Positions 1,301 to 23,966 of a stretch of 64,000 nt of DNA are shown here, in pieces (within the stretch, counting starts at the first letter, position 1; each line of letters opens with the position of its first letter). The translations under genes were made by a program, and so were the position numbers. The notes under the pieces are model-generated. The model worked only from the letters and a program-made list of their open reading frames with translations, ran no database searches and had not been told where the DNA came from. Location: assembly GCA_963711565.1 (NCBI GenBank), contig CAVQEQ010000002.1, positions 1 through 64,000 of the forward strand, written 5' to 3'. Source of the stretch: an uncultured delta proteobacterium (lineage in GTDB: Bacteria > Desulfobacterota > Binatia > Binatales > Binataceae).

Positions 1301-1309
1301 AGGACAGCA

Positions 1310-4539: not shown

Positions 4540-4553
4540 ACGGAAGGCCTCCT

Positions 4554-4895
4554 ATGAAAGGACTCAAGTTTTGCGTACTGGCCGCTTTCCTCTTCCTCGG
4601 AGCCTGCAACGGCAAATCCGACGACACCAGTGCTCCGCTCGCCGCCCTCCAATCTCCAAACGCCGCAGAAAACTACGGAGATCAGTTCTGGAACGACCAA
4701 CTTCAGAGAAAAACGGAGCTTTGGGGAAAAGCGCTCGGATTTTGCCAGCAGGCCGATCACAAGTTCTTAATCAACTGTCAGCCGGTACTGGCAGCGGCTG
4801 CGCCTCGAGTTCCGTTCTCGACGACTATGCCCGCTAACGGCTTAGGCGGCGGACTCGTCCCTATCCCCTCTCCCAACGTGCAAGGGACTCATTGA
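4554..4895 (+). CDS. Lipoprotein, probable entry-exclusion protein (TrbK/EexN-like)
   Basis: Lipobox LGAC, two further Cys, located between trbJ and trbL, C-terminal motif shared with TrbJ. Confidence 0.7.
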   Translation: MKGLKFCVLAAFLFLGACNGKSDDTSAPLAALQSPNAAENYGDQFWNDQLQRKTELWGKALGFCQQADHKFLINCQPVLAAAAPRVPFSTTMPANGLGGGLVPIPSPNVQGTH

Positions 4896-4904
4896 GGATG
4901 TGCG

Positions 4905-5993
4905 ATGAACAACCTCGACAATATCGGTCAGACGTTCCAATGGGCAGGCCAGCGTTACATGGCGATCATGCAGCCCTTCGCTGAGAAGATCTTCTTCGGC
5001 CTGGTAGTCATTGAAATTGTCATAACGTGTGTTCACTTCCTCACGGATCAGGAAGAGCCAACGCGCCTGCTAGCAGAATTTGTAAAGAAATCTCTCGCGC
5101 TCGGCTTTCTATACGCAATGATCGTGAATGCGCCGATGTGGTTCAGCGCAATCATCCAGGGCTTTCAGGAGATCGGGGGGCAAGCCGCCGGGATTCCCGA
5201 CCTTAGCCCGAGCACAGTTTTCAACAATGGCCTTGCGATGTTTCAGACGATCTATCGCGGCTTCGGGAGTTTGGGATGGTTTCACCTCACGATCGCATCG
5301 CTGATTGCTCTCGTCGCGGGGTTGATCATGTTTCTCTCGTTTGCCCTCATCGCCGGGCAAATGCTGCTCGCACTTTCCGAGGCGTACATCGGCGTTGGCG
5401 GTGGCGTGCTGATATTGGGCTTCAGCGGTTCTCGATGGACGATCAAGTTTGCTGAGGGTTTCCTCGGATGGATCGTCGGCGTCGGCATCAAGCTTTTTTT
5501 CATATACCTGCTCGTCGGCGTGGGCATGACGATAATTGCCGGCTGGAACGCTGCCCTAACCGGATGGGCAGTCGCTGACCCTACGCTCCCCCTGACCATC
5601 GCGGGCGGCGCGTTGATCTTCATGCTCCTCGCATGGACGATTCCAAACACCGCCGCATCGATCGTCGGCGGTGCGGTTTCACTCAATCTGAGCCACGCGT
5701 TCGAGGCAGCAGTCGCCGGCTACGGGCTGGGCAGAATTCTGACGAGCCAGAACGCCGCAGGAGTTGGATCGGGCGCCGCATCGCAAGGTGGCCATTCCCT
5801 CGTTGCAAGCCTCGAAGCTGGCGACAAAGCCGCAACTAACGGAGCTCGCTTGGCGTCAACCCATCCGACGGGCCAGATGCCCTTCAGCCGGATGTCCGCT
5901 TCGTCCAGTCCAGCAGGAAACCCAACGGCGACAGTAGGCCGAAATTCGGCCACTCAATTGTCAAAGCACAGCCCTCAGACCTCTCTATTGTGA
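4905..5993 (+). CDS. trbL: TrbL/VirB6
   Basis: Multi-TM protein, LSPS motif, Ala/Gly/Ser-rich tail. Confidence 0.88.
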   Translation: MNNLDNIGQTFQWAGQRYMAIMQPFAEKIFFGLVVIEIVITCVHFLTDQEEPTRLLAEFVKKSLALGFLYAMIVNAPMWFSAIIQGFQEIGGQAAGIPDLSPSTVFNNGLAMFQTIYRGFGSLGWFHLTIASLIALVAGLIMFLSFALIAGQMLLALSEAYIGVGGGVLILGFSGSRWTIKFAEGFLGWIVGVGIKLFFIYLLVGVGMTIIAGWNAALTGWAVADPTLPLTIAGGALIFMLLAWTIPNTAASIVGGAVSLNLSHAFEAAVAGYGLGRILTSQNAAGVGSGAASQGGHSLVASLEAGDKAATNGARLASTHPTGQMPFSRMSASSSPAGNPTATVGRNSATQLSKHSPQTSLL

Positions 5994-6111
5994 GAATCGA
6001 GCGAGTAAAGGACGCTGCGATGTCTCGCGGACCAATCGCCAAAGGCGCTTGAGCCGGCAGACCAAATACGCTAATTGACGTATCAGATAGCGACCAGAAC
6101 CTGGAGTGATA

Positions 6112-6432
6112 ATGAAAGAGGAGCCTACGTTCGGGCGGGCAATCGGCGCCGGGAGAAAGAAGCTCAATCTTAGTCAGAAAGAGTTGGCCGCGCGCATCAA
6201 GAAGGAAGAAGGTGGCGCGATCACGCCGCAGTACCTCAACGATATCGAACATGACCGTCGGAGTCCGTCCTCGGATCAAATGGTTCGTCAGTTCGCCGTT
6301 GTCCTTCAAATAAATCCTGACTACCTGTACTACTTGGCCGGTCGAATTCCGGACGACATCCGTAGGAAGCGGCTGTCGGAACAAGCCGTCGCAACCGGGA
6401 TGATGGCTTTTCGCAAATCTCCGAAATCATAA
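6112..6432 (+). CDS. XRE-family HTH regulator, CapH-like
   Basis: LSQKELA...PQYLNDIEHDRRSP HTH; adjacent to a metallopeptidase and CBASS. Confidence 0.8.
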   Translation: MKEEPTFGRAIGAGRKKLNLSQKELAARIKKEEGGAITPQYLNDIEHDRRSPSSDQMVRQFAVVLQINPDYLYYLAGRIPDDIRRKRLSEQAVATGMMAFRKSPKS

Positions 6433-6447
6433 GAATCGAGGCAGGCA

Positions 6448-7167
6448 ATGGTTCTTCAAGTTCGCGACAGGACAGGTCGCTTCCCGGAGCGTCCCCATTA
6501 CAAACCCGAGGAATTGGATAGCGAATGCGAATCAATAATTGTCGGATACTTGAAAAATCTGCACGGCGAAGCGCGTTTTCCGATCACAACAGATGATCTG
6601 ACAAAACTCATCGAACGAGACGCAGATTCTCTTGATCTTTATGCGGATCTGACGCGGCTGGGGACCGACGTGGAAGGCGTGACTGAATTCCGCCCCGGCC
6701 AAAAACCAGTTGTGAAGATCGCGGCCCCACTTGCAGAAGCAACCAACCGAGAGAATCGACTGCGGACGACGCTGACGCACGAGTATGGACATGTACGGTT
6801 TCATGCCTACCTCTGGGAGATCTATTCTCAGAGCGCCGATCTTCTGAGCAGCAAACCACGCTCTGACGTAGAAATCTGCAAGCGTGATAATCTTTTGTCG
6901 GCGCCAATGTCTGATTGGATGGAATGGCAGGCGGGGTACGCATGCGGCGCCCTATTGATGCCCGTCAGTTTTGTGCGCCGAATCGCGAGTCCGGTTCGGC
7001 ACGCGCATAATCTCTTTGGACCGGTCCCGGCAGAACATGCAGGTGGACGGGCCCTCGTCCAGGCGACGATGGAATCGTTTCAAGTCTCGCGCGAGGCAGC
7101 AGAAGTACGACTCGGTCAACTCGGATTCATTGGTGCAGCAAGGGCCGACCGTTCTCTATTTGATTGA
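6448..7167 (+). CDS. ImmA/IrrE-family metallopeptidase, CapP-like
   Basis: RTTLTHEYGH (HExxH), EWQA...ALLMP, FQVS; directly upstream of CBASS. Confidence 0.82.
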   Translation: MVLQVRDRTGRFPERPHYKPEELDSECESIIVGYLKNLHGEARFPITTDDLTKLIERDADSLDLYADLTRLGTDVEGVTEFRPGQKPVVKIAAPLAEATNRENRLRTTLTHEYGHVRFHAYLWEIYSQSADLLSSKPRSDVEICKRDNLLSAPMSDWMEWQAGYACGALLMPVSFVRRIASPVRHAHNLFGPVPAEHAGGRALVQATMESFQVSREAAEVRLGQLGFIGAARADRSLFD

Positions 7168-7306
7168 TCCAACGTCACCCATCCAATTTAACTTGAAGGA
7201 ACGCGATGTGTGGGCCTGCGATGGTCGTCTTCACAGAGCGGAGACTACGCTAATCCGCTGTTGTGCTTGCGCAGCGCATCTAATTCCTGTAATTTATATT
7301 GGAGTC

Positions 7307-8182
7307 ATGACGACCAATGTGATCGCCGATGAAGCGAAGCTTCCCGACGCAGAATTTGCTGCCGCCTGGGCGTCCATTAAAATCGAGGAAGCCGTCCGGG
7401 AACGGCTGACCGCGCAAGCCCTCTTGGCGCTTACTATTCGAAATAAACTTCCCTTCGAAATCGCTCCTCTTCATGGTCTGATCGTCCTTTCCGGGCAGGC
7501 TGGGACTGGCAAGACCACTTTGGCGCGCGGACTCGCAAATCAGGTGGCGATAGCGCTGGTTCCCAAGAAAACAAGCTTCGTGCAAATCGACCCCCACGCG
7601 CTCATGAGCGCGGCGCATGGTCGCAGCCAGAAGGAAGTTACGAAACTTTTCCAACAAACGATTCCTGAGATCGCTGCGAACGGTCCTATGGTGGTGCTTC
7701 TCGATGAGATCGAAACACTGATCGCTGATCGCCACCAGCTTAGCCTTGAGACGAATCCCGTGGATGTGCACAGGGCGACTGATGCCGCACTGGCGGGTCT
7801 TGACCTACTAACGCGTAAGCACCGAAACGTGATCATCATCGCCACAACAAACTTTCCTAAGGCGTTAGATAGCGCGTTGCTTTCGCGCGCAGATCTGATT
7901 GAACACATCGGCCCGCCGGACAAGGATGCGAGGCAAGCCATAATTCGCGAGGTACTTGAGCATCTAGCCAAGCACTGGCCGGCCATCTCAAACCTCGAGA
8001 AGGACGTGAAGCAATTCGTGCACGAATCGGAAGGACTTGATGGACGGCGGCTTCGCAAAGCGCTGATCGCGGCGGCGGCAACGTCGATCGACACCGCCCG
8101 AGACCCCAACAAGCTAACCAGAGCGCAAATCGTCGCCGCGTTGCGGAGAAGCCGCGCTGGTTATGAGGAGGTATCCGAATGA
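7307..8182 (+). CDS. cap6: CBASS AAA+ ATPase (TRIP13/Pch2-like)
   Basis: PLHGLIVLSGQAGTGKT, LLDEIETL, ETNPVDVHRATDA, SRAD; ATG 7307 with GGAG RBS. Confidence 0.92.
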   Translation: MTTNVIADEAKLPDAEFAAAWASIKIEEAVRERLTAQALLALTIRNKLPFEIAPLHGLIVLSGQAGTGKTTLARGLANQVAIALVPKKTSFVQIDPHALMSAAHGRSQKEVTKLFQQTIPEIAANGPMVVLLDEIETLIADRHQLSLETNPVDVHRATDAALAGLDLLTRKHRNVIIIATTNFPKALDSALLSRADLIEHIGPPDKDARQAIIREVLEHLAKHWPAISNLEKDVKQFVHESEGLDGRRLRKALIAAAATSIDTARDPNKLTRAQIVAALRRSRAGYEEVSE

Positions 8183-8637
8183 AGATTCGGCGGGATATTA
8201 GTTCCATTCCGCTCCGCACGGCGGAAGAGACTTGGTGGACCATCAGGCAGTTGGTGACTGGGCCTGGATCAATCGAAGCCGAACAATTCGACGCGGCAGC
8301 GAGTATCATGGCGTCGCTAACTACGGACGAATCATTTCGGGACGAGCCTCTGATCCTGCTGGGGGTGAGCCATCGACTCGTGATCTACCTGCAGTACGGG
8401 GCAGATGCGCTCGAAGCGGGCGAGGCGGTTGACTCACTGAATTGGAACCCGACGGCAGGAGATTGGACGCTGTACGTACCATGCGCCGCAGAGCAATTCG
8501 CTTGGGTTAAAAAAGCCCTTATGTCCCGCGCACCACGGTTCGTTCTGTTGAAACCTGGCGTCACCGTACCGGAGGGAGACGAGGAAACGGCCAAGTCAGA
8601 AAACGTAGAAATCAATTGGACGGCGTTCGAAAAATGA
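8179..8637 (+). CDS. cap8: CBASS HORMA protein (HORMA3-type)
   Basis: SIPLRTAEETW, GDWTLYVPC...WVKKAL resemble P. aeruginosa HORMA3; ATGA overlap. Confidence 0.85.
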   Translation: MKIRRDISSIPLRTAEETWWTIRQLVTGPGSIEAEQFDAAASIMASLTTDESFRDEPLILLGVSHRLVIYLQYGADALEAGEAVDSLNWNPTAGDWTLYVPCAAEQFAWVKKALMSRAPRFVLLKPGVTVPEGDEETAKSENVEINWTAFEK

Positions 8638-9140
8638 GCACGTTCACTTTCACATACACCCGGACTCACACCTCCGTTTTCGTCGCAGATAACATGCGAA
8701 ACGTCCTCCGCGACGTTGTCATGTGGAGCGGGCTTGATCCGACGAAGCTCATCGATGATTGGAGTGTAATTGGCCAAGCTATCCAGACGTGGCTGCGCTC
8801 GGAAGATCTACTGGAGATCATCATCGAATTTTTCGTGCCGGGGTCGACTAACCTGCGTGGTAGATGGGACTTCCCAATACAGTACGACGGTAGCGGCGGT
8901 GATGACGACATGTGGGTAGCACGCGATCACCTCCGGCGGACTATCGAAAAGGCGGGGCGGCCGCCCGCGAATGCTACTTATCGTATCATCCTCGTGACGC
9001 GGCTTGGGCGGCCCGACGTTTTGGGGATGGTCCCGACCACGCTGCGTTCGACCGAGGGATTTATCAGCCGTACTTCGGGCACCGCCATCGCCACGCCAGA
9101 CATTATGGCGTCGATCAAGTATTGGAGGGCTGCATCATGA
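8634..9140 (+). CDS. cap7: CBASS HORMA protein (HORMA2-type)
   Basis: THTSVFVADN, SGLDP, RWDFPIQY, GRPDV...RSTEG...YWR. Confidence 0.88.
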   Translation: MSTFTFTYTRTHTSVFVADNMRNVLRDVVMWSGLDPTKLIDDWSVIGQAIQTWLRSEDLLEIIIEFFVPGSTNLRGRWDFPIQYDGSGGDDDMWVARDHLRRTIEKAGRPPANATYRIILVTRLGRPDVLGMVPTTLRSTEGFISRTSGTAIATPDIMASIKYWRAAS

Positions 9141-10024
9141 TAAGCGTGGCGGATGCGTTTGAGACATTCAGGCAGCGGCTAGAACTGACCGAGACAGAGA
9201 GTGAGGATGCGCAACGCCGGCACAGCAGCGTTCGCGAATGTATTCGTGCACGGTTTCAAATCGACCGCGACTTTCTCACCGGCTCATACGCTCGGCATAC
9301 GAAAACGAAGCCGCTAAAAGATGTAGATATATTCTTCATTCTAGGTGAAAAAGAGAAGCAGTGGCATAGCAAGAAGCCGAACGAAGTGCTGGCGGCATTC
9401 CAAGACTGTCTGGTGAAGAGCTACGGCCGCGACCAGGTTGAGCAAGGCCGTCGCTGCGTTACGGTTGAATTCCGAAAGAGCTACCAGACAGAAGATCCTG
9501 ACGGCAAAGTCCTGAGTATCGATGCTGTACCCGCGTTTGAAGTTGGGGGTCATTATGAGATTCCGGACCGCGCATTGGGGAAGTGGATACCTTCCGATCC
9601 GGAAATTCATAAAGAAGAGGCCACTGCAAAAAACAAGCAACTGGACGGCAAGTGGGTCCCGCTCGTCAAAATGATAAAGCGATGGAATCGGGAGGCAGGC
9701 AAGCTGATCAAGCCGATGTTCCTCCTTGAGGTGATGGCTCAGGAGCTATTGGATCCTCCGTTCAATAGCTATCCAGATGAGATTCAGAGATTTTTTTCCG
9801 CAGCGCAGTCAGAAATAGAACAAGACTGGCCAGATCCAGCAGGCCTCGGACCTTTGGTCTCCGACCAAATGGACGCGGCCAAGCGTGAAACCGCTAAAAA
9901 GGCGTTCCGTGATGCCGAACGTCTTGCTGTTCAAGCTATGCGCGCGGAGCAGCGGGGTCATGTCGGAGAGGCGCTTGAACTGTGGCGCCAGATATTCGGT
10001 GGCCGATACTTCCCGACGAGCTGA
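9137..10024 (+). CDS. cdnD: CD-NTase, CdnD clade (cyclic oligoadenylate synthase)
   Basis: FLTGSYARHTKTKPLKDVDIFF, DAVPAF, WPDPAGLGP. Confidence 0.93.
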   Translation: MISVADAFETFRQRLELTETESEDAQRRHSSVRECIRARFQIDRDFLTGSYARHTKTKPLKDVDIFFILGEKEKQWHSKKPNEVLAAFQDCLVKSYGRDQVEQGRRCVTVEFRKSYQTEDPDGKVLSIDAVPAFEVGGHYEIPDRALGKWIPSDPEIHKEEATAKNKQLDGKWVPLVKMIKRWNREAGKLIKPMFLLEVMAQELLDPPFNSYPDEIQRFFSAAQSEIEQDWPDPAGLGPLVSDQMDAAKRETAKKAFRDAERLAVQAMRAEQRGHVGEALELWRQIFGGRYFPTS

Positions 10025-10031
10025 GACTAGT

Positions 10032-10808
10032 ATGGCGAACATCGCTAAACGCGAGTCGAGCGCACATGGACAAGATTTTCTGCGGCGTGCTTTCGCGGGC
10101 GTTCACAAGCTGCTTGCTCTTAAGCTTGATCATGCCGCGCAAACCATTACGCACGACGGAGAGCGCGGTGGCGTCACGGAGTCAGCGTGGATTGAAGTCT
10201 TGCGAAGTTATCTACCTAATCGTTATGCCGTGAATAGTGGAATCGTCATTGACAGTGAAGGTCATACGAGCGATCAAATCGACATCGTCATCTACGATTT
10301 GCAATATACGCCCGTACTACTCACCCAAGAGCCCCATCGATATGTTCCCGCCGAGGCCGTTTACGCCGTCTTGGAGGCAAAGCCGAACATCAACAAGCAG
10401 CGACTCGAATATGCGGGTCAGAAAGCGGCCTCAGTGCGTACTCTGAAGCGCACCTCGGTCCCGATTCCTCACGCTGGAGGGGTCTATCCGGCGAAACTGT
10501 TGTTTCCGATTGTCTCGGGGATCGTAGCCGCAGCAGTGGATTGGTCCGACGGATTCGGGGAGAGCTTTCTTAGCGTCATGGCCAGCGACGAGCTTTCTGG
10601 GGACCGCAGGGTCGACTGCGGATGCGCTCTGTCGCATGGAGCCTTTGACACGTTCGCTTCTGAAGGCGGGCTGACCTTTGGCACTCGCGAGGCAGACCTA
10701 GTGTACTTTCTATTTCGACTTCTCGACAAGCTGCAATCTCTGGGAACAGTGCCTGCCATTGATTGGAACGCATATGCTAACGTCCTACGAGTGGAAAAAG
10801 CTGGGTGA
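10032..10808 (+). CDS. nucC: CBASS effector endonuclease NucC
   Basis: YLPNRY, SDQIDIVIYDLQYTP, PAEAVYAVLEAK, LQSLGTVPAID. Confidence 0.93.
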   Translation: MANIAKRESSAHGQDFLRRAFAGVHKLLALKLDHAAQTITHDGERGGVTESAWIEVLRSYLPNRYAVNSGIVIDSEGHTSDQIDIVIYDLQYTPVLLTQEPHRYVPAEAVYAVLEAKPNINKQRLEYAGQKAASVRTLKRTSVPIPHAGGVYPAKLLFPIVSGIVAAAVDWSDGFGESFLSVMASDELSGDRRVDCGCALSHGAFDTFASEGGLTFGTREADLVYFLFRLLDKLQSLGTVPAIDWNAYANVLRVEKAG

Positions 10809-11436: not shown

Positions 11437-12204
11437 CTACGGCTGCTCTACTCTAGAAAGTCTGGGTTTAGTTGGACGCCGTTCGGCGAGGCCCAGCCCC
11501 GCGAAAGCGCAACCGTGGAATACTTGGCACGACGCACAAAGCGGCGCGCGCGCTCTGCAGACTAAAGCTGCGAAGTCGAGAATTGCCCAGTTCACCGAGA
11601 GACAGTTCTCAACGTCCACAACCTCCGCCGCCAGTCTTTGAAGGTAAGGGTCATATCGCAGATCAGCCAGATTCCGCGGGCCGAAGTACCTTTCCAATAC
11701 TCTCGCCATGTTCACGTCTAACAACGGCTGTCGTTCCCCGTGGCAGATCGTCAGAACAGCGTTCGCGATGTACTGACCCACTCCGGCGAGCGCTTCGATT
11801 TCCTCCCTCGTTCTTGGAAAGCGCCCCCCGCGGATCGCCAACTGTTGCGCTAGCCTCTTCAATGAAGCGGAACGGCGACGCCATAAGCCTATCGGTCGAA
11901 GAAAGTTCTTTAATTCTGATTGATTCGTGCGCGCGAGAGACTTCCATGATGGAAATTTTCGCACGAAAGCTCCAAAGAAGAGTGCGACTGTCTCGGCCCG
12001 TGTGCGCTGAAGAAGTGTCTCAGCCACAAGTTTCTGATACGTACTAGCTGCTTTACGCCGCCACGGGAGGTGCTGTCTGCCATTTTTTTCGGCCCATCCC
12101 AGAACGAGCCGACGAAATTCAGCCACTCTCTCCAATGCCAATGATTTTTCGCCCGTACGAGCATTGGCGCTGGATAGGACCAGTCCTCGCGCAGTCCTCG
12201 CCAC
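11437..12204 (-). CDS. HhH-GPD DNA glycosylase with 4Fe-4S motif (Mig/T:G-mismatch-like, MutY/Nth superfamily)
   Basis: LPWR, ETLLQRT, GVGQYIANAV, LDVNMARVLERYFG, C-x6-C-x2-C-x5-C; no MutT-like C-domain; GTG 12204 behind GGAGAAGGA is the preferred start. Confidence 0.85.
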   Translation of the reverse strand: MARTARGLVLSSANARTGEKSLALERVAEFRRLVLGWAEKNGRQHLPWRRKAASTYQKLVAETLLQRTRAETVALFFGAFVRKFPSWKSLARTNQSELKNFLRPIGLWRRRSASLKRLAQQLAIRGGRFPRTREEIEALAGVGQYIANAVLTICHGERQPLLDVNMARVLERYFGPRNLADLRYDPYLQRLAAEVVDVENCLSVNWAILDFAALVCRARAPLCASCQVFHGCAFAGLGLAERRPTKPRLSRVEQP

Positions 12205-12250
12205 GTGGCGCGATCCTTCTCCAAAATGGCCGCGCCCTTCCGGCTTGGCT

Positions 12251-15200
12251 TCAGTGCGCAATGTTCCGGGTTCGCGCAAGATACTTCCTACCAGAATTCG
12301 TGAGCTCCCTACCTTTAGGAGTCATTTGGACGAGGCTGAGCCGTTGGACGAGGTGAGGTTCTACTTCTGTCAGTATTCGATCTCTATCTACGCTGCCTAA
12401 CATGCTGAGCAACCGTTGTTCGCCTAACGGCCCGCTCCTTTCGAGCAGTTCGAGATAATTCACATCGAGATGAGCCAATCCGTTCTCATCGATGCCGCGG
12501 GTCCGACGGACTTCCTCCAAATGGTCGTCAACGGATCGGTCCTGGAATTCGGACACAAGTGCCTCAGTTTCAAGCTCTTTGGCCAACTCAATCGCAATGC
12601 GCGGAACCGATCTTCCGTAACGCGCGATCTTGCTTAGAACCTCAGGTGGCCAAGCGGCGAAAGCGCCAGCGAGCATCTGCGCCACTTCCGCCTCCGTGTA
12701 AGGATGCAAGTACACTTCCGTGCATCGGCTTCGAAACGCGGCGTCCAGTTCGGAACTTCGAGTAGTTGCGAATAGGTGCGTCGCCTGTCCCAAAACGGCT
12801 ACCCTATCATCCAGAACCACGGTACGGTCCCGACTTTCTAGTACGGTTAAAAAACTCTCCTGCACCGCGCGCGCCACGAGGTGAACTTCATCTACAAATA
12901 CGATGAGCGGCGGATATATGAGGCGCGCTTTCCCATACTGCGTCCCCTCTTTCGTCGGCCGCGAATTGGCCTGTTGGAGCTCTGCATCAATTAGCTCGAA
13001 GAGTTTTTCCCGCGAAGTTACTGTTCGCCCATCAACCTTGATGAAAGGAAGCGCCAAAGCAGAAGCAACCCTGCGAGCCAACTCCGTCTTGCCCGTGCTC
13101 GGGTTTCCAACGAATAAGTAGTTCTTGGGAAGGTGGGGCGGTCTTTCGATCAGTGCACGGAGTAGATCCCTCTTTAGAGAATCTACGGCCGGTCGGTTCC
13201 CGATGAACCCATCGAATGCCCTGTTTACGCGTTCTCTGACCTCCACCGGAATCGCCGAATGCGAGGTGGTCGGCTGGGGCAGCCCTGCCTCGACCTCCTC
13301 CTCATGTGTCGGGACTTCGCCAGGCTGCGCTGCGCCGCCCTTCACCGATACAAGCTGAGGTAGCAAGGCACTATGCGCGGGCGCGGTGAGAGGTTCGATG
13401 CCGACAGCTTGCGCAGAAGTTTTTTGACCGCCGCCATCTTGTTGCGACCGTGCGGCTTCGGCAGAACCGCAGAGTTGCCAACTCTCGATTCCTTGATCGA
13501 CCTCAACGGATGGTGAAGTTCGTTCTAGCAATGCCTTCGCATCAGCTCTACAAACCACCAGCGTCTCATCAAGTCCATCGTTGTCGAGGTCTAGTCTCCG
13601 CGAGCTTGGCGACGTATCGAACGCCAACAGGCGTCCTTCCTCGTTGACGATGATCTCGGCGGCCCCCGAGTACACCGCCGCAAGGATTGATTCGTGGCGT
13701 TTCGCCCATTCGTCGCTGGTCCGCCCGGTCACTTGCTCGTCTGCATAGACGCGGATTCCATAGTTCAGGACGTGAGCCAATAACCCTTTCGCGCACACAT
13801 TCCACAGGCCGGTTGGTGGGGTAGCAGCCCAAAGCTTGCGAAGAAAACCGCCAAAACTGCTTGCTTGCTTCAACCAATCGTTCAGGTTCGTTTCGCCTGC
13901 GACAGACTCTCGAAACTTGATCTCTATCGGAGTGATGTAGATCGAAATCTGGCCCGACCCTTCGCCGATGTGGACGCAAATGGCCAAGATATCGCCTCTC
14001 ATGAGTTCCGCGTCGTCACCTAGCAGCGACTGACGCACCTTCCGGAAAAGGCTCGTAAATGGGTCCACTGGAACTAGCACTGCCAAGGTATTAGCAGTTG
14101 CGACGGGAAGGCGGCATTCATGGCGTTGTGTTCCGAAAACGTCTTGGAGTAATCGTGCGCCCAGCAGCACGCCGATCTCACCGCGAGCATGAGTCCCACC
14201 CGACGCGAGCCTTTTCAGTATCGGTATGCCGCGCCGTGACACCTCTCCTAGCACTTCATCTACCGGGGGCGGATTCGCGCTCAGGAGCCTCGTTGCGGCT
14301 TCGACGGTCCGCCTGACTGCACTCGAAGGCTTTGCGAGCTTGTAATAACCAACCCGCTGTTCAGAGATCCCATCGGCGAAAGGGAGTTCGTAGTCCCATA
14401 GATACGAACCATGCACGGGCGCATTGCGTGCGAAGCAAGCCGGATCGATCTCTGCGGAGGAGACGACGACCAAACCCGCTTGATCCAAGCGATTCCCGAC
14501 CGCCACATGATTCGGGGCGAATTCTACAAGCGCCTCGCCATTCTTGCTGGATGCAAGCTCCTCGATCTCTGCAACGCAGGCCGATCCTAGACCTGTAAGG
14601 CCTTCTCCGGATCTCTCGACACTATGGATTCTCGTCTCGCGTATCCACGTTGCCGAGTCCCGATCTGTTCGTATTCTGCTCCCGATCAAGCACCCTTCGC
14701 TCGCGGGTGACCGCAATTCCGCGGCGGAGAGGCGAGGTTCGCGAATACCAAGCTGATCCAGGATGATAGCGTCGAGGTTCGCCGGTAGCTGCTGCTCGTA
14801 GCGGTCATACCACAGGACGCGACCGTCCGAATCCTCCGCAAGATTCGCGAGCTCCTCGTTCCCGGGTTGATCTTCTGGCCGCCTTCCGTCGAACACGTGG
14901 AGCTCTCTTGGCCACGACGGCGGCGTATCAACCGAAAAAACGTCCTGCGACCAGCTTACAATTCCTTCCGAACAAGTGCTCTGGCCTTCCTGTTCTCCCA
15001 CTACGCCCAGACGAAGTACCGATCTGGCGGGAAGCATATTACTGACGTCCTGTAGCGTGCGCTTCGCCTGCGCGGAGGTAAATCCACCCTCGAATCCGCG
15101 TGCTCCCACACCGAAAGTGCGAAGTAAGCTAGCAGCACTGCTCGATCGCAGACGCTCGATCATTCGAGAATTCCAAAGAAGCGACCAATATGGGTCTTCA

Positions 15201-17464
15201 CAAGGAACCGAAATGAACGTCGTCCAAAATGGATCACCACCCCCCCGGAAGATCGGCCATGCGGCTATATCAGGGGAGCGGTTGGGGTCAAGTAAGCCAG
15301 CCAGTGGACATCTCTGACGCAGGCCCGCAGTCAAGAGCTTTTGAGCATTAAACATCCACGCGAGCCTAGCCGGATGTAGGGGAGACAAAAGCATCGCGAT
15401 TGGTTCGCCCCCAGCGGTTGGAGCTCCCGCGGCTGGGTTCGGCTCAGCCTCGAGAATCGCCACACAGTCGAACCACATTGCCGCGGAAGGCTCCGCTCGT
15501 AACCACTCCAAATACGCTCGTAGGTAAGCTTCCGCGCTGCTGGTCAATTCGTCGCGAGAGATTACCTGTTCGACGAGCTTAGTGCGTTCGGTATCGAGTA
15601 TGCGACGAACTTCCTCTCTAGCCGTCCGAACCGCTTCCGGTACTTCGCTGTTTCGAAATCTCGGATCAAATTGCGGTACGAACTGGCCCAGACGCGGATC
15701 CGACCAGTTCAGATCGGCAACGCGCATGACGCTTAGGTCTCCTGCGACGAGGATGGGATGCCAGCTTTCGGAGTTTGATAGGAGCGCAGTTTCGAGCCCG
15801 CGGATCATCCTTTCATGCGGAATCACTGGACTTGGACGTCCTCTCCCCCGCTGGTGGGCAACAACCAATGCTTCGAAGTATGTGCCAGGCGCCTCTCCGA
15901 CGTTTTCTTGAACAGTGACGAGGACTTCGCTCTTGCCGACTTCAACCCCGCCAGCGTCTAGAAATATGAACGTCAACTGGCTTTCCTCTTCAACCGTCAG
16001 AGTTAGGAGCGAAATACCATCTACAACAGGGGATTCTGCCTCTGCCGAGTCCGAGCAGCGGACGACGCTAGTGGCTGGTCCTGAATAGACGTAAACTCGA
16101 TGAGTCCCTGTCGATTCGAGCTCGATCTCCTGAGCCCAATTCGATCCGCTTCTCTCAGGAACAGTTATTCGAGCGGCATTCGGGGATGAAACGAGACCGG
16201 GCGCTTCTAACTGCGCAAGAGATACGAGATCGATTCGGCTGCTCCTAGCACCGCTGTCCTCCGCCTGATACCGCAGCGGGCGATCGTGCGCTGGAGGGTT
16301 AGGATCCGTAAATGAGGTTGGGCTCGCAGACGGAGCGGGCGCCATAAGCTCAACAAGGCGCCTTCGCCCAACGCGCCGGGAGATCGAGAGTCCTTGAAAC
16401 GCCGGAGCGCCTTCGCAAGTGATCTCTAGATCCGCTGCGTCCCGAACGACGACCGGCTCACCCCGCGCCGACGTGTTGAGGTTAATCCGGTTACTGCAGG
16501 TGAGTCTTATCCGGGCCTGAGGTGCGCGCGCGCCGACCTCGTCTAGGAGTTGTCCTAGCCGAGCTTCATCCAAGGTCGACCACCAATCGGGACGAGAACT
16601 CGCCTCTGACGGGCGAAATGCCAGCGTGCGGAGCCTGTTGAATCCACCACCGGACCCGGCGGATTGCTGAAGGTGATTGCGCAATGCCTCCAACGCTGGC
16701 GTCACCTGAGCGCCCGTGGCCGTCGCCTTCAATTCCTCGAACCCCCCTTCGAGCCCACGCTCCTCTAAATACTCGGCCAACTCTACGACGGCCTGATATG
16801 CAGATTGAGGGCTCGAACCGACAGAGCCGGGAGACGGTAAACCGCACGAACGGTATACGGCAACAACCGGAGGTTCACTGAGCGGGAAACCGTTAGTCAA
16901 GTAGCTCAACGCGTCCCAGGGGGCTCCCGAGCGCTTGTCTGTATCCAGACCTTGCGCATCGTGCCAGATGCAATGCAGCGCTTCGAAGATCAAGTTCTCC
17001 GAGATATTAATTCTGGATGCTATCCGCAAGCATAGGCTGTGCATCAGGCGATTCGGAGATTTGGCGCGGCCTTCGAACGCGATCGGTGTCGAGAGCGTAT
17101 CGGTCGCCGTCCGAATCGATTCCGGCCGATCCCACATCTCGGGCTCTACGAGTATAAGTGAGCGCTCGTAGCTGTTACGTGCATTGACTGCGTAGTCCCA
17201 AGTACATGCGCAGCTTCCCAATTGGCCACTCTGAATCCTGGGACTATTCGATATGAGCAAAACTGGAACAGTCAGCGTATCTCCGCCGGCACCGATCAGC
17301 CAATCTGTCGTTCCATCTTTTGTCAGGCGTGCGAACAGCGATTGGAGCGACTTCGCCGACGGACCGCAGACGACGGGCTGAAGCCGGGCGTTCCCGTCCA
17401 CCTGTCGCAGTCGGAGTACGTATTCCTCCAGTTCTTCTTCCAACAGTTCCGCGAGCGAGGTCAT
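12251..17464 (-). CDS. 1737-aa DptH/DndH-like protein with PD-(D/E)xK motif and C-terminal RuvB-like AAA+ module
   Basis: LSPLHP motif, RGDILA...PIEIK, then FIGN, GNPSTGKT, FVDEVH, FATTR, PRIA, EPHL, TPKGRELT. Confidence 0.75.
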   Translation of the reverse strand: MTSLAELLEEELEEYVLRLRQVDGNARLQPVVCGPSAKSLQSLFARLTKDGTTDWLIGAGGDTLTVPVLLISNSPRIQSGQLGSCACTWDYAVNARNSYERSLILVEPEMWDRPESIRTATDTLSTPIAFEGRAKSPNRLMHSLCLRIASRINISENLIFEALHCIWHDAQGLDTDKRSGAPWDALSYLTNGFPLSEPPVVAVYRSCGLPSPGSVGSSPQSAYQAVVELAEYLEERGLEGGFEELKATATGAQVTPALEALRNHLQQSAGSGGGFNRLRTLAFRPSEASSRPDWWSTLDEARLGQLLDEVGARAPQARIRLTCSNRINLNTSARGEPVVVRDAADLEITCEGAPAFQGLSISRRVGRRRLVELMAPAPSASPTSFTDPNPPAHDRPLRYQAEDSGARSSRIDLVSLAQLEAPGLVSSPNAARITVPERSGSNWAQEIELESTGTHRVYVYSGPATSVVRCSDSAEAESPVVDGISLLTLTVEEESQLTFIFLDAGGVEVGKSEVLVTVQENVGEAPGTYFEALVVAHQRGRGRPSPVIPHERMIRGLETALLSNSESWHPILVAGDLSVMRVADLNWSDPRLGQFVPQFDPRFRNSEVPEAVRTAREEVRRILDTERTKLVEQVISRDELTSSAEAYLRAYLEWLRAEPSAAMWFDCVAILEAEPNPAAGAPTAGGEPIAMLLSPLHPARLAWMFNAQKLLTAGLRQRCPLAGLLDPNRSPDIAAWPIFRGGGDPFWTTFISVPCEDPYWSLLWNSRMIERLRSSSAASLLRTFGVGARGFEGGFTSAQAKRTLQDVSNMLPARSVLRLGVVGEQEGQSTCSEGIVSWSQDVFSVDTPPSWPRELHVFDGRRPEDQPGNEELANLAEDSDGRVLWYDRYEQQLPANLDAIILDQLGIREPRLSAAELRSPASEGCLIGSRIRTDRDSATWIRETRIHSVERSGEGLTGLGSACVAEIEELASSKNGEALVEFAPNHVAVGNRLDQAGLVVVSSAEIDPACFARNAPVHGSYLWDYELPFADGISEQRVGYYKLAKPSSAVRRTVEAATRLLSANPPPVDEVLGEVSRRGIPILKRLASGGTHARGEIGVLLGARLLQDVFGTQRHECRLPVATANTLAVLVPVDPFTSLFRKVRQSLLGDDAELMRGDILAICVHIGEGSGQISIYITPIEIKFRESVAGETNLNDWLKQASSFGGFLRKLWAATPPTGLWNVCAKGLLAHVLNYGIRVYADEQVTGRTSDEWAKRHESILAAVYSGAAEIIVNEEGRLLAFDTSPSSRRLDLDNDGLDETLVVCRADAKALLERTSPSVEVDQGIESWQLCGSAEAARSQQDGGGQKTSAQAVGIEPLTAPAHSALLPQLVSVKGGAAQPGEVPTHEEEVEAGLPQPTTSHSAIPVEVRERVNRAFDGFIGNRPAVDSLKRDLLRALIERPPHLPKNYLFVGNPSTGKTELARRVASALALPFIKVDGRTVTSREKLFELIDAELQQANSRPTKEGTQYGKARLIYPPLIVFVDEVHLVARAVQESFLTVLESRDRTVVLDDRVAVLGQATHLFATTRSSELDAAFRSRCTEVYLHPYTEAEVAQMLAGAFAAWPPEVLSKIARYGRSVPRIAIELAKELETEALVSEFQDRSVDDHLEEVRRTRGIDENGLAHLDVNYLELLERSGPLGEQRLLSMLGSVDRDRILTEVEPHLVQRLSLVQMTPKGRELTNSGRKYLARTRNIAH

Positions 17465-19002
17465 CGGCGCGCCTGCTCCCTAGGCGAATTGAATGGATCG
17501 ACTAACACTCGTCCACCGTAGGCATCAGGGCTATCAATTGTCAGCCCGAGTGCAGCAAGGTTACCTATCAGCCGGCCCGATTCTAACTCTTCCGACGCAA
17601 TGCGGATCCCGTATGCGGCCAAGTGTTTCCGCAGGTCGTCTATCGTGGAGGGCACACCGGGTCTTGCAGAACACACGCAGTGGACGATTACCAGCAACAT
17701 GTTAGGACCAGGCTGCAGGAGCCAGATCCGTTGTCTGGGTGATGTCAACGGCGCCAAATAGGCTTGATCATACGAACGCTGTGCCTGATCGAGCGGCGCA
17801 ACTTGACGTGTTACGTAGCGCAAAAATTCCCTGATGTTCTTCGGAGGCCCCTTTTTTCCTGCCGCAGCGCGAGAATTCCTGTCAACCAATTTCTCGCATC
17901 GTTCTTGCAGCCAAGCCTTAGGGCTAGGGGCTACTTTAAACCGCTCGCGGCGTAGGTGCTGGAGGAAATTTACGATTTGAGCTGCACAGCTGCTCGAATC
18001 AGACGACCCGAGCGGCGTAGGCCAACCTACGTTGGCATCGTCCAGCCTGTGCAGCATTAAGTTGAGTCCCAGTCGTGCGCGCACATACCCTTCGAGCGTT
18101 ATGCTAAACGCGCGCTCCGTGTCTCGACCCACCTCCAGAAAAGCTCCGGAGCCGTGATGCGATTCGAATAATATCGCTTCTACCTCAGATTCGGTTGGGA
18201 TACTTCCGTCTCCAAGTGCGTCAAGACTCAAAGACCAGCAGTTCGCGTTAAGGCGGCACAGCCATAGCACTTGAGCGACCGCGGCTAATCTAAGTTCCGC
18301 TTCCAAAACTGCCACCCACTGCTCCCGACTCAATGTGCGCTTTAATCTCAGGACCTGCGGAAGATCGTCTACGAATCGTTCCGCTGGCGCGAAAGGCTCT
18401 TTCCGAATTTCTCGGTGAGCCACGTGCTTCCACTCGCCAAAAGCTGGTGGTCGCGGCCTCTCATTCTTTGGCGGAGGGACCGCAGCCAAGGCTTCCTGCA
18501 AGAACCTCGCGAATACGTCGTCCTCTGACCCAACGTCTAGGGCCTGTGCGAACTCCGGAAGAAGGGCCTCGTACCCGGCCCGGCCTGCACCGGAAGCGAT
18601 ACACGCCAGAATAAAATTACCTGGCGTCCAACGGCCACGCCGGGCACCTAGTACGCCTCCGTGTGCCGCGAGAAACGGCACGGTCGGTGAGAGATTCGGA
18701 AATCGGCTTCTCGGCAGGGCAGGACTGCGGATACAACCGGCATCTCCAAAAAGCCTATCCCAAAGCAAAAGAGGGGCACCGAGAACGTTCTTGCTGGTCA
18801 ACTGGTTCGGCAACTGAGGGATCAGTTCTAAGTCCACCGTCCGATCAGTGTTGGCGCCGGCAAGACCCAGCACGCGGCAAGTAGAGGCGAGCATAACCTC
18901 GCCTGTCGTCCATTCCGGCGCCGCTGGAAACTCGAGAGCAGACTTTTGATAAGACAAATGGTCTTGTTGGAAGGGATGTGACTCGAACTCGGTAACGCTC
19001 AT
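17461..19002 (-). CDS. DptG/DndG-like protein
   Basis: Size and position between DptF-like and DptH-like genes; wHTH-like C-terminus LAAYGI...LGLTIDSPDA. Confidence 0.6.
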   Translation of the reverse strand: MSVTEFESHPFQQDHLSYQKSALEFPAAPEWTTGEVMLASTCRVLGLAGANTDRTVDLELIPQLPNQLTSKNVLGAPLLLWDRLFGDAGCIRSPALPRSRFPNLSPTVPFLAAHGGVLGARRGRWTPGNFILACIASGAGRAGYEALLPEFAQALDVGSEDDVFARFLQEALAAVPPPKNERPRPPAFGEWKHVAHREIRKEPFAPAERFVDDLPQVLRLKRTLSREQWVAVLEAELRLAAVAQVLWLCRLNANCWSLSLDALGDGSIPTESEVEAILFESHHGSGAFLEVGRDTERAFSITLEGYVRARLGLNLMLHRLDDANVGWPTPLGSSDSSSCAAQIVNFLQHLRRERFKVAPSPKAWLQERCEKLVDRNSRAAAGKKGPPKNIREFLRYVTRQVAPLDQAQRSYDQAYLAPLTSPRQRIWLLQPGPNMLLVIVHCVCSARPGVPSTIDDLRKHLAAYGIRIASEELESGRLIGNLAALGLTIDSPDAYGGRVLVDPFNSPREQARR

Positions 19003-19013
19003 AGTCGCTTCCC

Positions 19014-21113
19014 CTAGGCCTCCCGACGGAACTCGAGCTCACCGTTGTAATCGAGCACTAACCTGCCGATCTCTTGTCCGGACTCCCTAAACTCAACCCA
19101 TACCTGACCATCTGCGAGCCTTTCCTTGTCGCGCGATAGGCCAGCCGCGTAACCGTGACGAAGCCGCTCTAGCATCGCTGCCACCCCAGAGGGGAGACTC
19201 CCGTTGGCACAGCCATCTGACCTCCGTCGCAGCGCGACGTACAACTCGAATGTAAGCGGCAGAACGCTATCGCCTACTTCAATACAAGGCATGTCATAAG
19301 CAGGGCGCCCAGGCTTAATGCCCGGTGCTGGCCGCGGACGAATCCCGCTCCTCGGTCCTACAATGATGACGCTTTGCGTCATTCGAGTTTCAGCCTGTCC
19401 AAACGACGAGACCAACGAGCCAGCAAATTGATTGCCTCCCAAAAGATTGGCTACAAGCTGAGCTATTCTTGATAGCCTGCTTTGGTCTCGTAAACTTTCC
19501 TCGTACTCACTTAACAGTCCTTCGTTTGCATGCCTTCCAGCGCTCACCCCGATAATTCGCTTCACCACTGCCGAACTTAAGCGGCGCAAAAATTCGATTG
19601 CAGTTACTGCACTCTGCTTTTCTCGCCCCAAGACGTCCCATTCTTCCTCCGCGCACGCCAGCATCTGGATGAAGCTCTGGCCGAGCTCCGACAATTGCTC
19701 CTTGAATTCATCAAGCCCTTGTCAACATCCCTGCCCAAACTCGTTCTCGATTCGCTTGAGTAAGTCGTTTTCCGAATCACCGCACCACCGAGCCGGGTCG
19801 ATCCACAATCGGTGAACTCCGCGAAGCAAGATCCGAATATGCTTCGAGCTATCTGGTTCGGTGCGCCGGATAGTGTCGCAAACAGCTCGTGTCACCGTCG
19901 CTCCGGCGTTAGATGCTTCCGATCTAACCACGCGCAATTCCTCTTCGGCCGCTAACGTTTGGAACAAACGTTGCGAATACAGGCCACGAGCCAACGGGAT
20001 GATTGCGGTTGCGCGCTGAGCATTATTCGCGGCGTTGCGGTACCGCGACACGAGGTCGTGGACCCACGAACATGGATCCGGATAGGAATCGAAATCTGAC
20101 CACTGTCCGACGATCAGTTCTGCCGTTAGAGAAAACGCATCACGGAAGGACCATCGTTGCCCGGTGGCTAGCTCGCCGCGTCTGAGAATGCGGAAGAGCG
20201 CATCTGAAACCGCCTCGTCGCGAAGCGATTCGGCGTTCTCGCGCATCGGGCACAGCCGTCTCGAGTCGCAATCGTTGCATCGTCCATCCACCTCCCACTC
20301 TTCGACTGCCGTGGCACTCAGGACTATCTCGCTTATGGGCATCCTGCCATCACCGCGCGCCGTCAGGCTCTCAACGTCCAAAGGCCAGCACGTGAAACGC
20401 GGATCGGCAGCCAATGGCCAACACGTTGGTTGGTTTTCCGACAATGCTTCTAAGCCGAGAGCGGTAGCTCGAATGATCTGGTCCAACGCCTCGACAACCG
20501 GACTTCCAGGATATTCGTTGTGCGCCCTTGCTAACGCTCGGGCGAGCAGGCCGCGGTTCGCGCAGCACACGAAGACAGGCAGTTCGCGCTCTGACGAAGT
20601 GACCAAGTCTGCCACGTCCTCTACTAGCAAGTCGGCCGCGTCGGCGATGGCGTTATCGCTGGCCGAAGCGTCCTGAATCAGGGTTAGTCTTCGGATCGTC
20701 AGGCCGAATCGACTCCCGGAAACACCAACATCTCCGCCCGTTATGTTAACCCGTCTCGGCAGCAGCTTCCCGACCCCGAATCTCTGCCGGACGGCTGCAA
20801 CCAACGCGCCGCCGGAATCTAGATTCAAATCGAGCCTCTCCACGAAATCTTGAACCGCCTCCGACTTGCCGTTGCCGGGTCCGCCGATGAGGAAGATCCA
20901 ACGTGGGGCGGTCTCGTCGCCCCCGGCGATGCGAGAAGCTAAATCCCGGAGCCTCACGATGAGCCCAGTTAGAACCAGCGAGCCGATCGGGTTCCCCCAT
21001 CTCGCAAACGGCACACGGACACCGCCACGATCGTGTCCGTGCCAGCCCAGAAGATCTGCTACCCATTCGTTTTTGTTAGCTGGCACGAGCGCGTACCTCG
21101 TCCGATCCGGCAA
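19014..21113 (-). pseudogene. DptF/DndF-like P-loop NTPase interrupted by one in-frame TGA (19722-19724)
   Basis: GGPGNGKS, QDAS, CANRGLL, CxxCx5CP; the 463-aa and 226-aa ORFs share a frame and are joined by GC*QGLDEFKEQL. Confidence 0.72.
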
Positions 21114-22413
21114 CCATCTCGCTCCAAGTTTCCATCAGCACGTATCCCATTACTTCCGCGACAAACGGTGGCATTGCGTTCCCCACCTGGGTGTAGCGCG
21201 GACACTCTCGTTTCCGGCGCATTCCGCCAGTCGTGTATTTTCCCATGAACCCATACCAATCGGGGAAGGACTGCAGCCGCGCGTATTCGCGGACCGTCAG
21301 TATCCGTGGTTCAGAATAATGCAGAAAATCATCTGGCAACGTGGTGAGAGTATGGGAGGGTTTGTCCGGATCAAGGGGCACGATACAGTGCTTTCGAATC
21401 CCCAGACGATCACGGTCAGCCTGCGAAAGGCCAACGCCCTTCTTGCACGTCTTCAGGATTTTCGCGAAGTGGTCGATGGTATCAAGCTTGTGCCTGGGTA
21501 GTCTTAGGCTATTGGGAGCTTTCCCGCCTAACCCGGCGTGTAGCAGCCTCTGGTACGGAGTTTTCGGCCCCTCGTAATCGATCTGATTGAATCTGGGAAA
21601 ATCGTCGCATTCGACAAAATTCTTACCGGTAACCTCCAGGTCAGAGATTGCCTCCCGAGCCGTAACTGCCCTATCGATCGGCAGATCCTTCGATCTCAAG
21701 AACTCAATTCGCTTCGCCGAAACCAGCTGAAAAGGATTCTCCGGTTTGAAATTCGATCCGCGCGTGTCAACGGCGATCACAAACTGCCGTGGGCGCAACT
21801 GGGCGACTCCAAAATCAGAGGCGCTGAGGCATTCATCAAATACTTCGTAGCCCAACTCCTCCAAGCTATCGCGTAATCGCGCCAAAAACGGCCGCGCCGG
21901 TCTCCCGACCTGCGTCCGCCGCTCTTTACGTTTCGTTTTGCCGAATTCTGTAGCGATTCCCTTCACGTTCTCGAAAAGCACTAGTCGCGGCCTGATGGCG
22001 TCTACCATCTCAATGTATTGCTCGAACATGCGGTTCCGCGGATCATCTCGTCGGCGGCGCCCCGCATATGAAAAACCCTGACATGGCGGCCCCCCCGCCA
22101 CGAGGTCGATCTCTCCCCTCAGCTCGCCTAACTGCGAAGAATACTTTTTGAGGAAAGTACTGAGTCGGCAGGATTCCTTCGGAAGCCAGGATGGCCACTG
22201 AAACCGAAATCCGCCAGCGCGATCTATCAAGTTGGATTTGAGTGTCTCGAAGGCGTTCTCTTCTCTTTCAACCGCCAACACTCCTTGCCATCCGGCGGCC
22301 ATGAGTCCCAGCGAGAGACCCCCGCACCCGGCAAACAAGTCGATGAAGGTGGGTCCGTCCGCGATCTCATACCGCGAAACGCGAGCCCTTTCCTGCCCCA
22401 TGTTCCGTTTCAT
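21076..22413 (-). CDS. DNA (cytosine-5)-methyltransferase
   Basis: Motifs DLFAGCGG, GGPPCQGFS, ENVKG, QLRPR, TVREYARLQSFPD, QVGNA; exact start uncertain (22401-22434). Confidence 0.95.
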   Translation of the reverse strand: MKRNMGQERARVSRYEIADGPTFIDLFAGCGGLSLGLMAAGWQGVLAVEREENAFETLKSNLIDRAGGFRFQWPSWLPKESCRLSTFLKKYSSQLGELRGEIDLVAGGPPCQGFSYAGRRRRDDPRNRMFEQYIEMVDAIRPRLVLFENVKGIATEFGKTKRKERRTQVGRPARPFLARLRDSLEELGYEVFDECLSASDFGVAQLRPRQFVIAVDTRGSNFKPENPFQLVSAKRIEFLRSKDLPIDRAVTAREAISDLEVTGKNFVECDDFPRFNQIDYEGPKTPYQRLLHAGLGGKAPNSLRLPRHKLDTIDHFAKILKTCKKGVGLSQADRDRLGIRKHCIVPLDPDKPSHTLTTLPDDFLHYSEPRILTVREYARLQSFPDWYGFMGKYTTGGMRRKRECPRYTQVGNAMPPFVAEVMGYVLMETWSEMVAGSDEVRARAS

Positions 22414-22511
22414 GTCTACGAGTTCTTCACTCAAGATCTGCTCTTCCCCGACAAGCCGACGGCGAGGGACCGACCCGAATCAGGTCGGGGCGCCGAACTC
22501 GCGTGCACTCT

Positions 22512-23891: not shown

Positions 23892-23966
23892 TTCCCCACC
23901 ACGCGACGGGAGAGCCGCGCAAGCGGTTCTCCTCAACCATCCAAACCACAATCGGAGATCACGAAA

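Follow-up and report, generated by a model that had tools for sequence, protein, structure and literature searches.

In textbook accounts, the RuvB motor acts at Holliday junctions and only together with RuvA. Another kind of motor is described for DndFGH (DptFGH): in the main text of PMC10853773, all DndH proteins are stated to end in a HerA/FtsK ATPase, DndG is expected to have three winged-helix domains, and the DndH core is given an inactive SWI2/SNF2 domain, a helix-turn-helix (HTH) domain, and target-recognition domains. The same text holds that a phosphorothioate modification partner is not required for DndFGH, and the available part of PMC11662687 reports that DndFGH nicks and translocates DNA. 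Here, we describe a DndH-family gene with a RuvB-type motor at its C-terminal end (12251..17464, minus strand; one open frame of 1,737 amino acids (aa), analyzed with AlphaFold models) and the five-gene cassette to which it belongs. It lies in a 64,000-nucleotide stretch of DNA from an uncultured delta proteobacterium of the Binataceae, the whole of which we call the window.

The locus resembles DndFGH and SspFGH in its F-G-H gene order, in similar protein sizes, in the P-loop features of its DndF-type gene, and in a DndH core with beta-sandwiches, a methyltransferase-like fold, and a nuclease; its sisters bear tails that PADLOC labels DndH or SspH. It differs in that the motor is an AAA+ ATPase of the RuvB type, and in that the cassette is paired with a C5 cytosine methyltransferase and a T:G repair gene, not with dnd/ssp sulfur genes. 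The RuvB-powered DndH is of the DndFGH kind, yet outside it by the HerA/FtsK criterion, and it is not a housekeeping RuvB. It has the AAA+ domain, lid, and winged-helix head of RuvB with the Walker, sensor, and finger residues, but the module is fused behind a nuclease core of 1,340 residues, scores under the family cut-offs, forms a separate clade, and has a short presensor-1 hairpin, a 21-residue insert, and an altered signature motif.

A further relative is MADS, an eight-gene N6-methyladenine (m6A) system with a similar three-gene core and a tested precedent for methylation-guided action. The protein at the G position here resembles MAD7 weakly, by language-model features (Atlas 0.93, with a recognition value of 1873, below 2300), and does not match PADLOC mad7, whereas the HerA tails of the sisters match mad8. 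Unlike MADS, the cassette has five genes, with a C5 methyltransferase, a T:G repair gene, and a RuvB motor, and it lacks counterparts of MAD1-5. The terms "RuvB", "Vsr", and "glycosylase" occur zero times in the main text of PMC10853773, whose supplement may list such architectures, and "RuvB" occurs zero times in the accessible text of PMC12839542 and PMC13662399. In the mainly open-access literature examined, as far as its accessible text extends (including PMC8092258, PMC12345140, and the main text of bioRxiv 10.1101/2023.03.30.534895), a fusion of RuvB with DndH/DptH is undescribed, and among the matches listed nothing pertinent concerned DndFGH with a cytosine methyltransferase or Vsr. 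The RuvB-powered DndH is real, conserved, and apparently undescribed.

A RuvB-type motor behind a DndH-like core

The motor module occupies residues 1405-1737 (12251..13252, minus strand), in which sequence, profile, and fold identify an AAA+ domain, a helical lid, and a winged-helix head. The original prediction, made from the letters of the DNA, concerned the final 587 codons of the 1,737-aa frame and traced RuvB motifs along the last ~330 aa; every motif that it quoted lies within the minus-strand frame 12251-17464. Its description as a complete RuvB module holds for the domain content and overstates the resemblance, as the module is divergent: NCBIfam ranks RuvB first for the window protein, far under the cut-offs (82.1 versus 282 and 75.6 versus 299 bits). 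The Pfam scan that it proposed was similarly divided. An AAA domain was found at residues 1450-1586 and the RuvB_C winged helix above its cut-off at residues 1660-1729 (12278..12487, minus strand; PF05491, 43.3 bits, cut-off 24.7), while RuvB_N stayed sub-threshold (19.5 bits in the window protein and 25.5 for the module alone, cut-off 27) and AAA_lid_4 was absent from the Pfam matches at E<=0.1. The lid forms four helices in the predicted model, and a sub-profile of it picks the genome's own RuvB first (E 7e-4), as does a sub-profile of the head (E 2.7e-10).

In a PDB sequence search, RuvB accounts for each of the best 18 matches (best E 3e-15, versus 6e-7 for the next family). Foldseek likewise places the predicted motor model nearest RuvB (E 3.6e-19 versus 1.8e-10 for clamp loaders), as does the VIA fold comparison (Z 23.9 over 292 residues, root-mean-square deviation 3.5, versus 17.3 for Lon), and HHalign matches the fused-module profile to housekeeping RuvB at 99.94% over 289 columns. 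A generic AAA domain with chance motifs and without RuvB_C, the outcome named beforehand as fatal to the idea, is rejected by the head domain and by the fold and profile matches; taken by itself, the ATPase part does not tell the two apart. The module is a divergent RuvB relative, distinct from housekeeping RuvB.

Homologue searches yielded 77 and then 193 matches (120 of them listed), and full length was taken to be 1,500 aa or more, within P0001-P0069 and P0078-P0145. Among the matches listed, at least 113 are full-length nuclease-RuvB fusions, the window protein included. The named carriers belong to Chloroflexota, Acidobacteriota, Planctomycetota, Gemmatimonadota, Nitrospira, and alphaproteobacteria, and one is a Thermoplasmata archaeon; the public labels of the homologues (DptH, RuvB, or AAA ATPase) cover only parts of the protein. 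A contig from sequencing run X1, possibly the source sample, covers 13054-13675 with zero differences and spans the nuclease side, the linker, and the motor side, and runs X2 and X4 contain pieces 95-99% similar along the operon, without the joints. An assembly chimera is ruled out by the 113 full-length homologues and the bridging contig. The fusion was not found in full in viral contigs, where both matches are stand-alone forms. One copy of the fusion gene (L024:9803-14420) is broken by an IS21 element and has its start truncated by an HTH-encoding segment, and one protein of 1,829 aa (P0077) joins the same RuvB module to a very different core with a nuclease region that resembles SspH (PADLOC E 1.4e-7).

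The protein was modeled in two overlapping parts: residues 1-1070 (75 sequences, pLDDT 90) and residues 1050-1737 (69 sequences, mean pLDDT 88), the latter showing a nuclease-like domain, a disordered linker, and the three-domain motor. The linker (residues 1343-1399; 13268..13438, minus strand), noticed earlier as a low-complexity segment, is predicted to be disordered (pLDDT<50), and the discordance of core and motor marks it as the region of motor exchange. Before it lies a predicted PD-(D/E)xK nuclease domain (approximately residues 1080-1340; 13445..14227, minus strand), assigned by conservation and by a modeled helix-three-strands-helix core. Fold comparisons of the model returned lists occupied by the motor, and an Atlas search with the nuclease part reached only clusters without names. 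The fusion of RuvB behind such a motif had been read correctly: R1156, D1158, E1181, K1183, and Q1200, together with E1096, are invariant in 113/113 full-length fusions, and the D1158 and E1181 columns are also kept in 58/58 sisters with HerA-type tails.

Further toward the N-terminus, residues 790-1047 (14324..15097, minus strand) form an S-adenosylmethionine (SAM)-methyltransferase-like Rossmann domain, presumed inactive as in DndH; SAM-dependent methyltransferases make up most of its top 50 VIA rows (best Z 10.7). Residues 529-784 (15113..15880, minus strand) are a modeled domain at the position of DndH target recognition, named by position only (PMC10853773 section 21), and residues 315-518 (15911..16522, minus strand) are two beta-sandwich domains in the model and by VIA; like the methyltransferase-like fold, these give moderate matches (Z about 9-11). 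Residues 1-309 (16538..17464, minus strand) are modeled as an alpha/beta domain and a helical bundle, where DndH has its inactive SWI2/SNF2 and HTH domains; they gave no fold match and are assigned by position in the model. The putative SWI2/SNF2, HTH, and target-recognition domains fit DndH in type and order, without a listed fold match, and the modeled domain order of residues 1-1070 equals that given for DndH in the consulted text of PMC10853773. Three homologues (P0066, P0071, and P0075) match PADLOC DndH over the nuclease part. The protein N-terminal of the motor is thus, by sequence and model, of predicted DndH architecture.

Functional residues of the motor were taken from the accessible text of PMC9477746, with numbering mapped via housekeeping RuvB columns and no direct alignment. 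Walker A and B, sensor 1, the arginine finger, and sensor 2 are kept in 113/113 fused modules, except that the Walker A Thr is Ser in one; K1459 (Walker A), D1525/E1526 (Walker B), T1568, R1580 (arginine finger), R1622 (sensor 2), and R1719 in the head are all invariant. The signature glutamate of RuvB is retained, and the equivalent of Arg21, probably R1410, which adjoins an alignment gap, is kept in 110/113. The presensor-1 hairpin, which in RuvB binds RuvA domain III (PMC9477746), spans 26 residues in 113/113 fused modules versus 32 in 29/29 housekeeping RuvBs, six fewer, and a 21-residue insert follows the neighboring helix, which is the remainder of the RuvA-binding surface. Because the catalytic residues are kept, the hairpin is shortened, and the insert falls in the RuvA-binding surface, the sequence suggests an active motor that has lost RuvA docking.

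Motor exchange and the phage-type lineage

The core of the window protein also occurs with other motors. HerA-type sisters align with it at an HHalign probability of 100% (E 5e-124) and match PADLOC DndH (E 1e-62 to 1e-75), mostly via the tail and in two cases also across the nuclease. A core-profile search returned 610 representatives; we classified 146 of the 150 listed plus seven earlier proteins, excluding four partial members of the fused family. Among these 153 core-bearing proteins, the C-terminal motor is RuvB in 36, one HerA type in 71, and other HerA/FtsK types in 17 (three verified by Pfam matches, the rest by PADLOC or by eye); 29 are truncated.

On a core tree of 76 rows, for which every third full-length HerA row was kept, the RuvB label needs six changes. 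The 36 RuvB rows of the main clade are interrupted by three HerA-B rows, each nested in a different place, the cores of L030 and P0291 cluster with those of HerA-bearing P0320 and P0332, and the SspH-like P0077 is a long branch. Individual pairs are similarly discordant: the motors of L030 and L025 are 57% identical and their cores have no BLAST match, while the L030 core and that of HerA-bearing P0320 share 42% identity; conversely, the P0203 core is 58% identical to that of RuvB-bearing P0204, and P0203 has a HerA-type tail, with unrelated motors. A single origin of the RuvB-bearing cores is rejected by the approximately unbiased (AU) test (p 4e-7), run on 24 of the 76 rows picked after tree inspection, with P0077 and the three HerA-B rows omitted. 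By these sequences, motors have been exchanged repeatedly among DndH-type cores, in agreement with the motor swap in a DptH/DndH-type protein that the original prediction had suggested.

The motor did not come from the host's own ruvB in recent time. A phylogeny against housekeeping RuvB, also proposed at the outset, groups the fused modules in a clade (support 100/99) apart from 25 housekeeping RuvBs (100/97), the carrier genomes' copies among them, and recent capture of a host ruvB is rejected on this separation. Housekeeping ruvB is present above the family cut-off in 20/23 carrier genomes and in the window's genome, which also has ruvA and whose normal ruvAB is located elsewhere from the cassette. 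The host's housekeeping RuvB clusters with that of a Candidatus Binataceae genome (L001, L150; 100/100).

Relatives of the module were found on viral contigs. A pattern scan of 2.9 million such contigs gave 27 loci with stand-alone relatives, of which 11 are 39-58% identical to the stand-alone query, and a tree with a housekeeping RuvB outgroup includes 20 of the 27. Nine close viral proteins nest within the fused clade, together with other stand-alone forms, and the neighbors of these close genes include integrases, a methyltransferase, DnaB, and terminase. Eleven distant viral proteins, encoded on contigs of 36-572 kb, make up the sister clade of the fused modules, have the same insert before Walker B and the same short hairpin, and exceed the RuvB_N cut-off in six of the six tested. 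Capture from a phage-type lineage, which the original prediction had missed, would be the simplest reading. We infer its direction rather than observe it, because support for the fused clade is only 85 in the tree with viral proteins and, counting against this placement, a tree built with six distant outgroups under a mixture model no longer makes the module the sister of housekeeping RuvB and does not resolve the root.

The stand-alone RuvB-like genes themselves (L167-L177, L029, L031, and L032) lie on viral contigs or in mobile regions, with a possible role in counter-defense or recombination. The divergent viral genes (L178-L190, on the contigs of 36-572 kb) are not named RuvB by any PHROG, and the accessible text of PMC7824862 says that the RuvC of jumbo phages lacks coupling to a RuvB-like ATPase.

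The five-gene cassette and its proposed action

The conserved gene order is C5 methyltransferase, DndF-like, DndG-like, RuvB-type DndH, and MIG-like glycosylase; the methyltransferase and the repair enzyme had gone unremarked in the original prediction. All lie on the minus strand of the window: the C5 cytosine DNA methyltransferase at 21076..22434 (PF00145, E 5e-49), the DndF-like P-loop gene at 19014..21113 (PADLOC SspF, E 1.3e-5), the DndG-position gene (513 aa) at 17461..19002, and the HhH-GPD glycosylase, MIG-like and without the MutY C-terminal domain, at 11437..12279, translation of which probably begins after the first TTG. Among 26 genome loci, 23 have the fusion (L024 split by the IS21 element and L015 cut) and three are stand-alone. 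Clustering of the 23 fused loci found the C5 methyltransferase in 16, the DndF-like gene in 19, and the DndG-like gene and the glycosylase in 20 each; L030 has divergent F and G copies beyond these counts, and six of the seven fused loci lacking the C5 methyltransferase are truncated at a contig edge.

The DndF-like gene has GGPGNGKS, N186, Q147-D148 (QD for ND), and C279/C282/C288, conserved in 16 aligned sequences. These compare with the DndF features in PMC10853773 section 20, namely Walker A, an Asn in Walker B, an ND-type strand-2 motif, and an optional Zn insert. The DndG-position gene has no family match in Pfam, NCBIfam, or PADLOC.

Vsr and Mig-type enzymes repair deaminated 5-methylcytosine (5mC), and the two kinds alternate in the last slot of the cassette, with Vsr in HerA-type sisters and the glycosylase in RuvB-type loci. 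Of the 131 metagenome loci of HerA type, we examined the best 80: 63 have the methyltransferase, 66 F, 69 G, 30 Vsr, and 4 the glycosylase, with Vsr and glycosylase never together, and Vsr gave zero tblastn matches in the 26 RuvB-type genome loci or the window. The glycosylase has A95, R92, and Y170, conserved at >=80% in 21 sequences, as the Ala, Arg, and Tyr of Mig.MthI (A50, R47, and Y126, placed via E. coli MutY V45, Q42, and S120; PMC2714593, accessible text). It differs in having Trp231 at the position of Mig L187 (MutY Q182), and its overall scores are near equal (MutY E 1.5e-32, Mig 8e-31). A housekeeping MutY role is disfavored by the residues and by the alternation with Vsr; it stays possible because no other MutY lies above the cut-off in the window's genome.

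The HerA-type loci (L066-L145; 131 loci matched) are a large family of cassettes in which F, G, and HerA-type H are accompanied by a C5 methyltransferase and Vsr, and which amount to a DndFGH-like system coupled to 5mC and separate from the RuvB question. A histidine-kinase-like ATPase gene and a receiver-like partner adjoin some of them (9 and 7 of 80; L133:3-3298, L069, L070, and L082).

We think it probable that the RuvB-type motor replaces the usual HerA/FtsK motor of DndH and that, with the DndF- and DndG-like partners, it forms a 5mC-guided restriction complex, in which a RuvA-independent ring would translocate duplex DNA and the predicted nuclease would cut DNA lacking the 5mC mark. The adjacent C5 methyltransferase would mark self DNA, and the MIG-like glycosylase would repair the T:G mismatches that arise from deamination of 5mC. 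The DndG-like protein and the target-recognition domains may bind unmethylated sites and anchor the complex, substituting for the role of RuvA. Six modules would assemble into a ring, its winged helices holding one strand of the duplex and moving it along, and translocation would license nicking or cutting by the tethered nuclease. A nuclease-coupled double-stranded DNA translocase, one of two activities originally proposed, is the best account that the sequence offers of how the protein may act.

Several observations weigh against 5mC-guided restriction by such a translocase. In the motor, the ATPase part alone scores equally on a ClpA-like protein and on RuvB by sub-profile. The signature aspartate (Asp129 in PMC9477746), substitution of which impairs branch migration according to the accessible text of that paper, is Ala, Pro, or Ser in 110/113 fused modules; a D1546/R1547 pair close by is a possible but uncertain substitute. 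A head arginine invariant in housekeeping RuvB is kept in just 40/113 and is Met in the window protein. The window protein itself matches no PADLOC DndH or SspH profile, and the DndG-like fold is unconfirmed, with no PDB or PADLOC match from a 45-sequence alignment, though size and position fit. The DndF-like gene of the window is broken by an in-frame TGA (19722-19724), through which 15/15 complete homologues aligned read; because of this stop, the window's copy of the cassette may be dead, or it may be mis-assembled. Among the differences of run X1 listed (3 of 5), none falls at this TGA, and the DndF-like gene of L028 is also split. In favor of the 5mC reading, by contrast, a link to phosphorothioation is unsupported, as dndC and dndD are absent from the window's genome (94.9% complete) and dndC from 22/23 other carrier genomes (present in 1/23), many of which are incomplete, leaving the absence of dndC unproven, and in which ssp modification genes were outside the search.

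Loci L030 and L025 share methyltransferase and glycosylase (82% identical) while their F, G, and H cores are unalignable, which fits matched specificity badly and is the strongest result against tight coupling of the methyltransferase to specificity. The F-G-H trio might instead be a modification-independent counter-invader system to which methyltransferase and repair gene are linked as a separate module. PMC10853773 argues, in its main text, that a modification partner is dispensable for DndFGH, which it describes as stand-alone (section 25), and the methyltransferase switches side and strand in L017, L022, L025, and L030. We hold such independence to be quite improbable, as the methyltransferase linkage spans both motor types and many phyla (16/23 and 63/80) and the methyltransferase gene of the window overlaps the longest frame of its F-like gene.

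The other two alternatives concern the motor. The RuvB module might recognize or remodel branched DNA (Holliday junctions or stalled forks) in phage replication and so aim the nuclease, perhaps borrowing host RuvA, which the carriers' housekeeping ruvB and the ruvA of the window's genome would allow. All three RuvB domains are retained, and captured motors are proposed to localize DndH to particular states of invader DNA (PMC10853773, main text). Sensing of branched DNA, also raised in the original prediction, is nevertheless weakened by the short hairpin in 113/113, by the lack of a recurring ruvA-like gene in the 23 fused loci (clustering only), and by the interchangeability with HerA/FtsK pumps, which occupy the same slot of the same cassette. 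In RuvAB, moreover, it is RuvA that holds the junction, and the RuvB heads grip duplex DNA rather than the crossover (PMC9477746, accessible text). We regard junction sensing as unlikely, and as less likely than duplex translocation. A role as bait, in which the module mimics a phage RuvB-like protein and co-assembly with that protein or its partner switches on the nuclease, would suit the finding that the closest stand-alone relatives are on viral contigs, the close ones nested in the fused clade and the eleven distant ones sister to it. We give this idea little credence: the invariant catalytic residues suggest a working motor, the pattern scan of viral contigs found such proteins at only 27 loci, and the presence of a methyltransferase and a T:G repair gene speaks for site-specific marking of self.

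Beyond duplex translocation under 5mC guidance, we suggest, tentatively and with some doubt, that a RuvA-independent RuvB lineage may shuttle between phages and defense. It would have been captured as a plug-in motor of DndH, interchangeable with HerA/FtsK despite the different ATPase class, and later regained as a free gene by temperate phages; in that case the cassette would be a widespread 5mC-guided restriction system on a DndFGH chassis that reads 5mC as well as phosphorothioate. A nuclease-tethered RuvB relative with a short RuvA hairpin offers a direct test of whether the RuvB ring is a general duplex translocase when given another anchor, and it extends the rule of HerA/FtsK capture in DndH to a class of ATPase unrelated to those pumps. 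Clean swap comparisons are possible in natural pairs whose motors differ while their cores are near-identical. The fixed link to a C5 methyltransferase provides a simple, definable mark for the question, left open by partial phosphorothioate modification, of how complexes of the DndFGH type distinguish self from non-self.

The surrounding window

The cassette lies within what looks like a conjugative defense island that also holds CBASS type III and NsnABC. The CBASS type III genes (TRIP13, two HORMA, cyclase, and NucC; window 6106-10808) stand behind an HTH and IrrE-like peptidase pair, which we take to resemble the CapH/CapP regulators, and three genes at 25049-28369 match PADLOC NsnA, NsnB, and NsnC. 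Genes named by eye as trb-like conjugation genes, a single-stranded DNA-binding protein, an ArdC-like gene, and a tyrosine integrase (78-5993, 23517-24839, and 43760-44962) make the region look like an integrative conjugative element. At 33683-40470, an HTH-fused SNF2-type helicase precedes a sacsin-like ATPase gene, the end of which overlaps another frame (a possible frameshift; assigned by eye), possibly another defense system.

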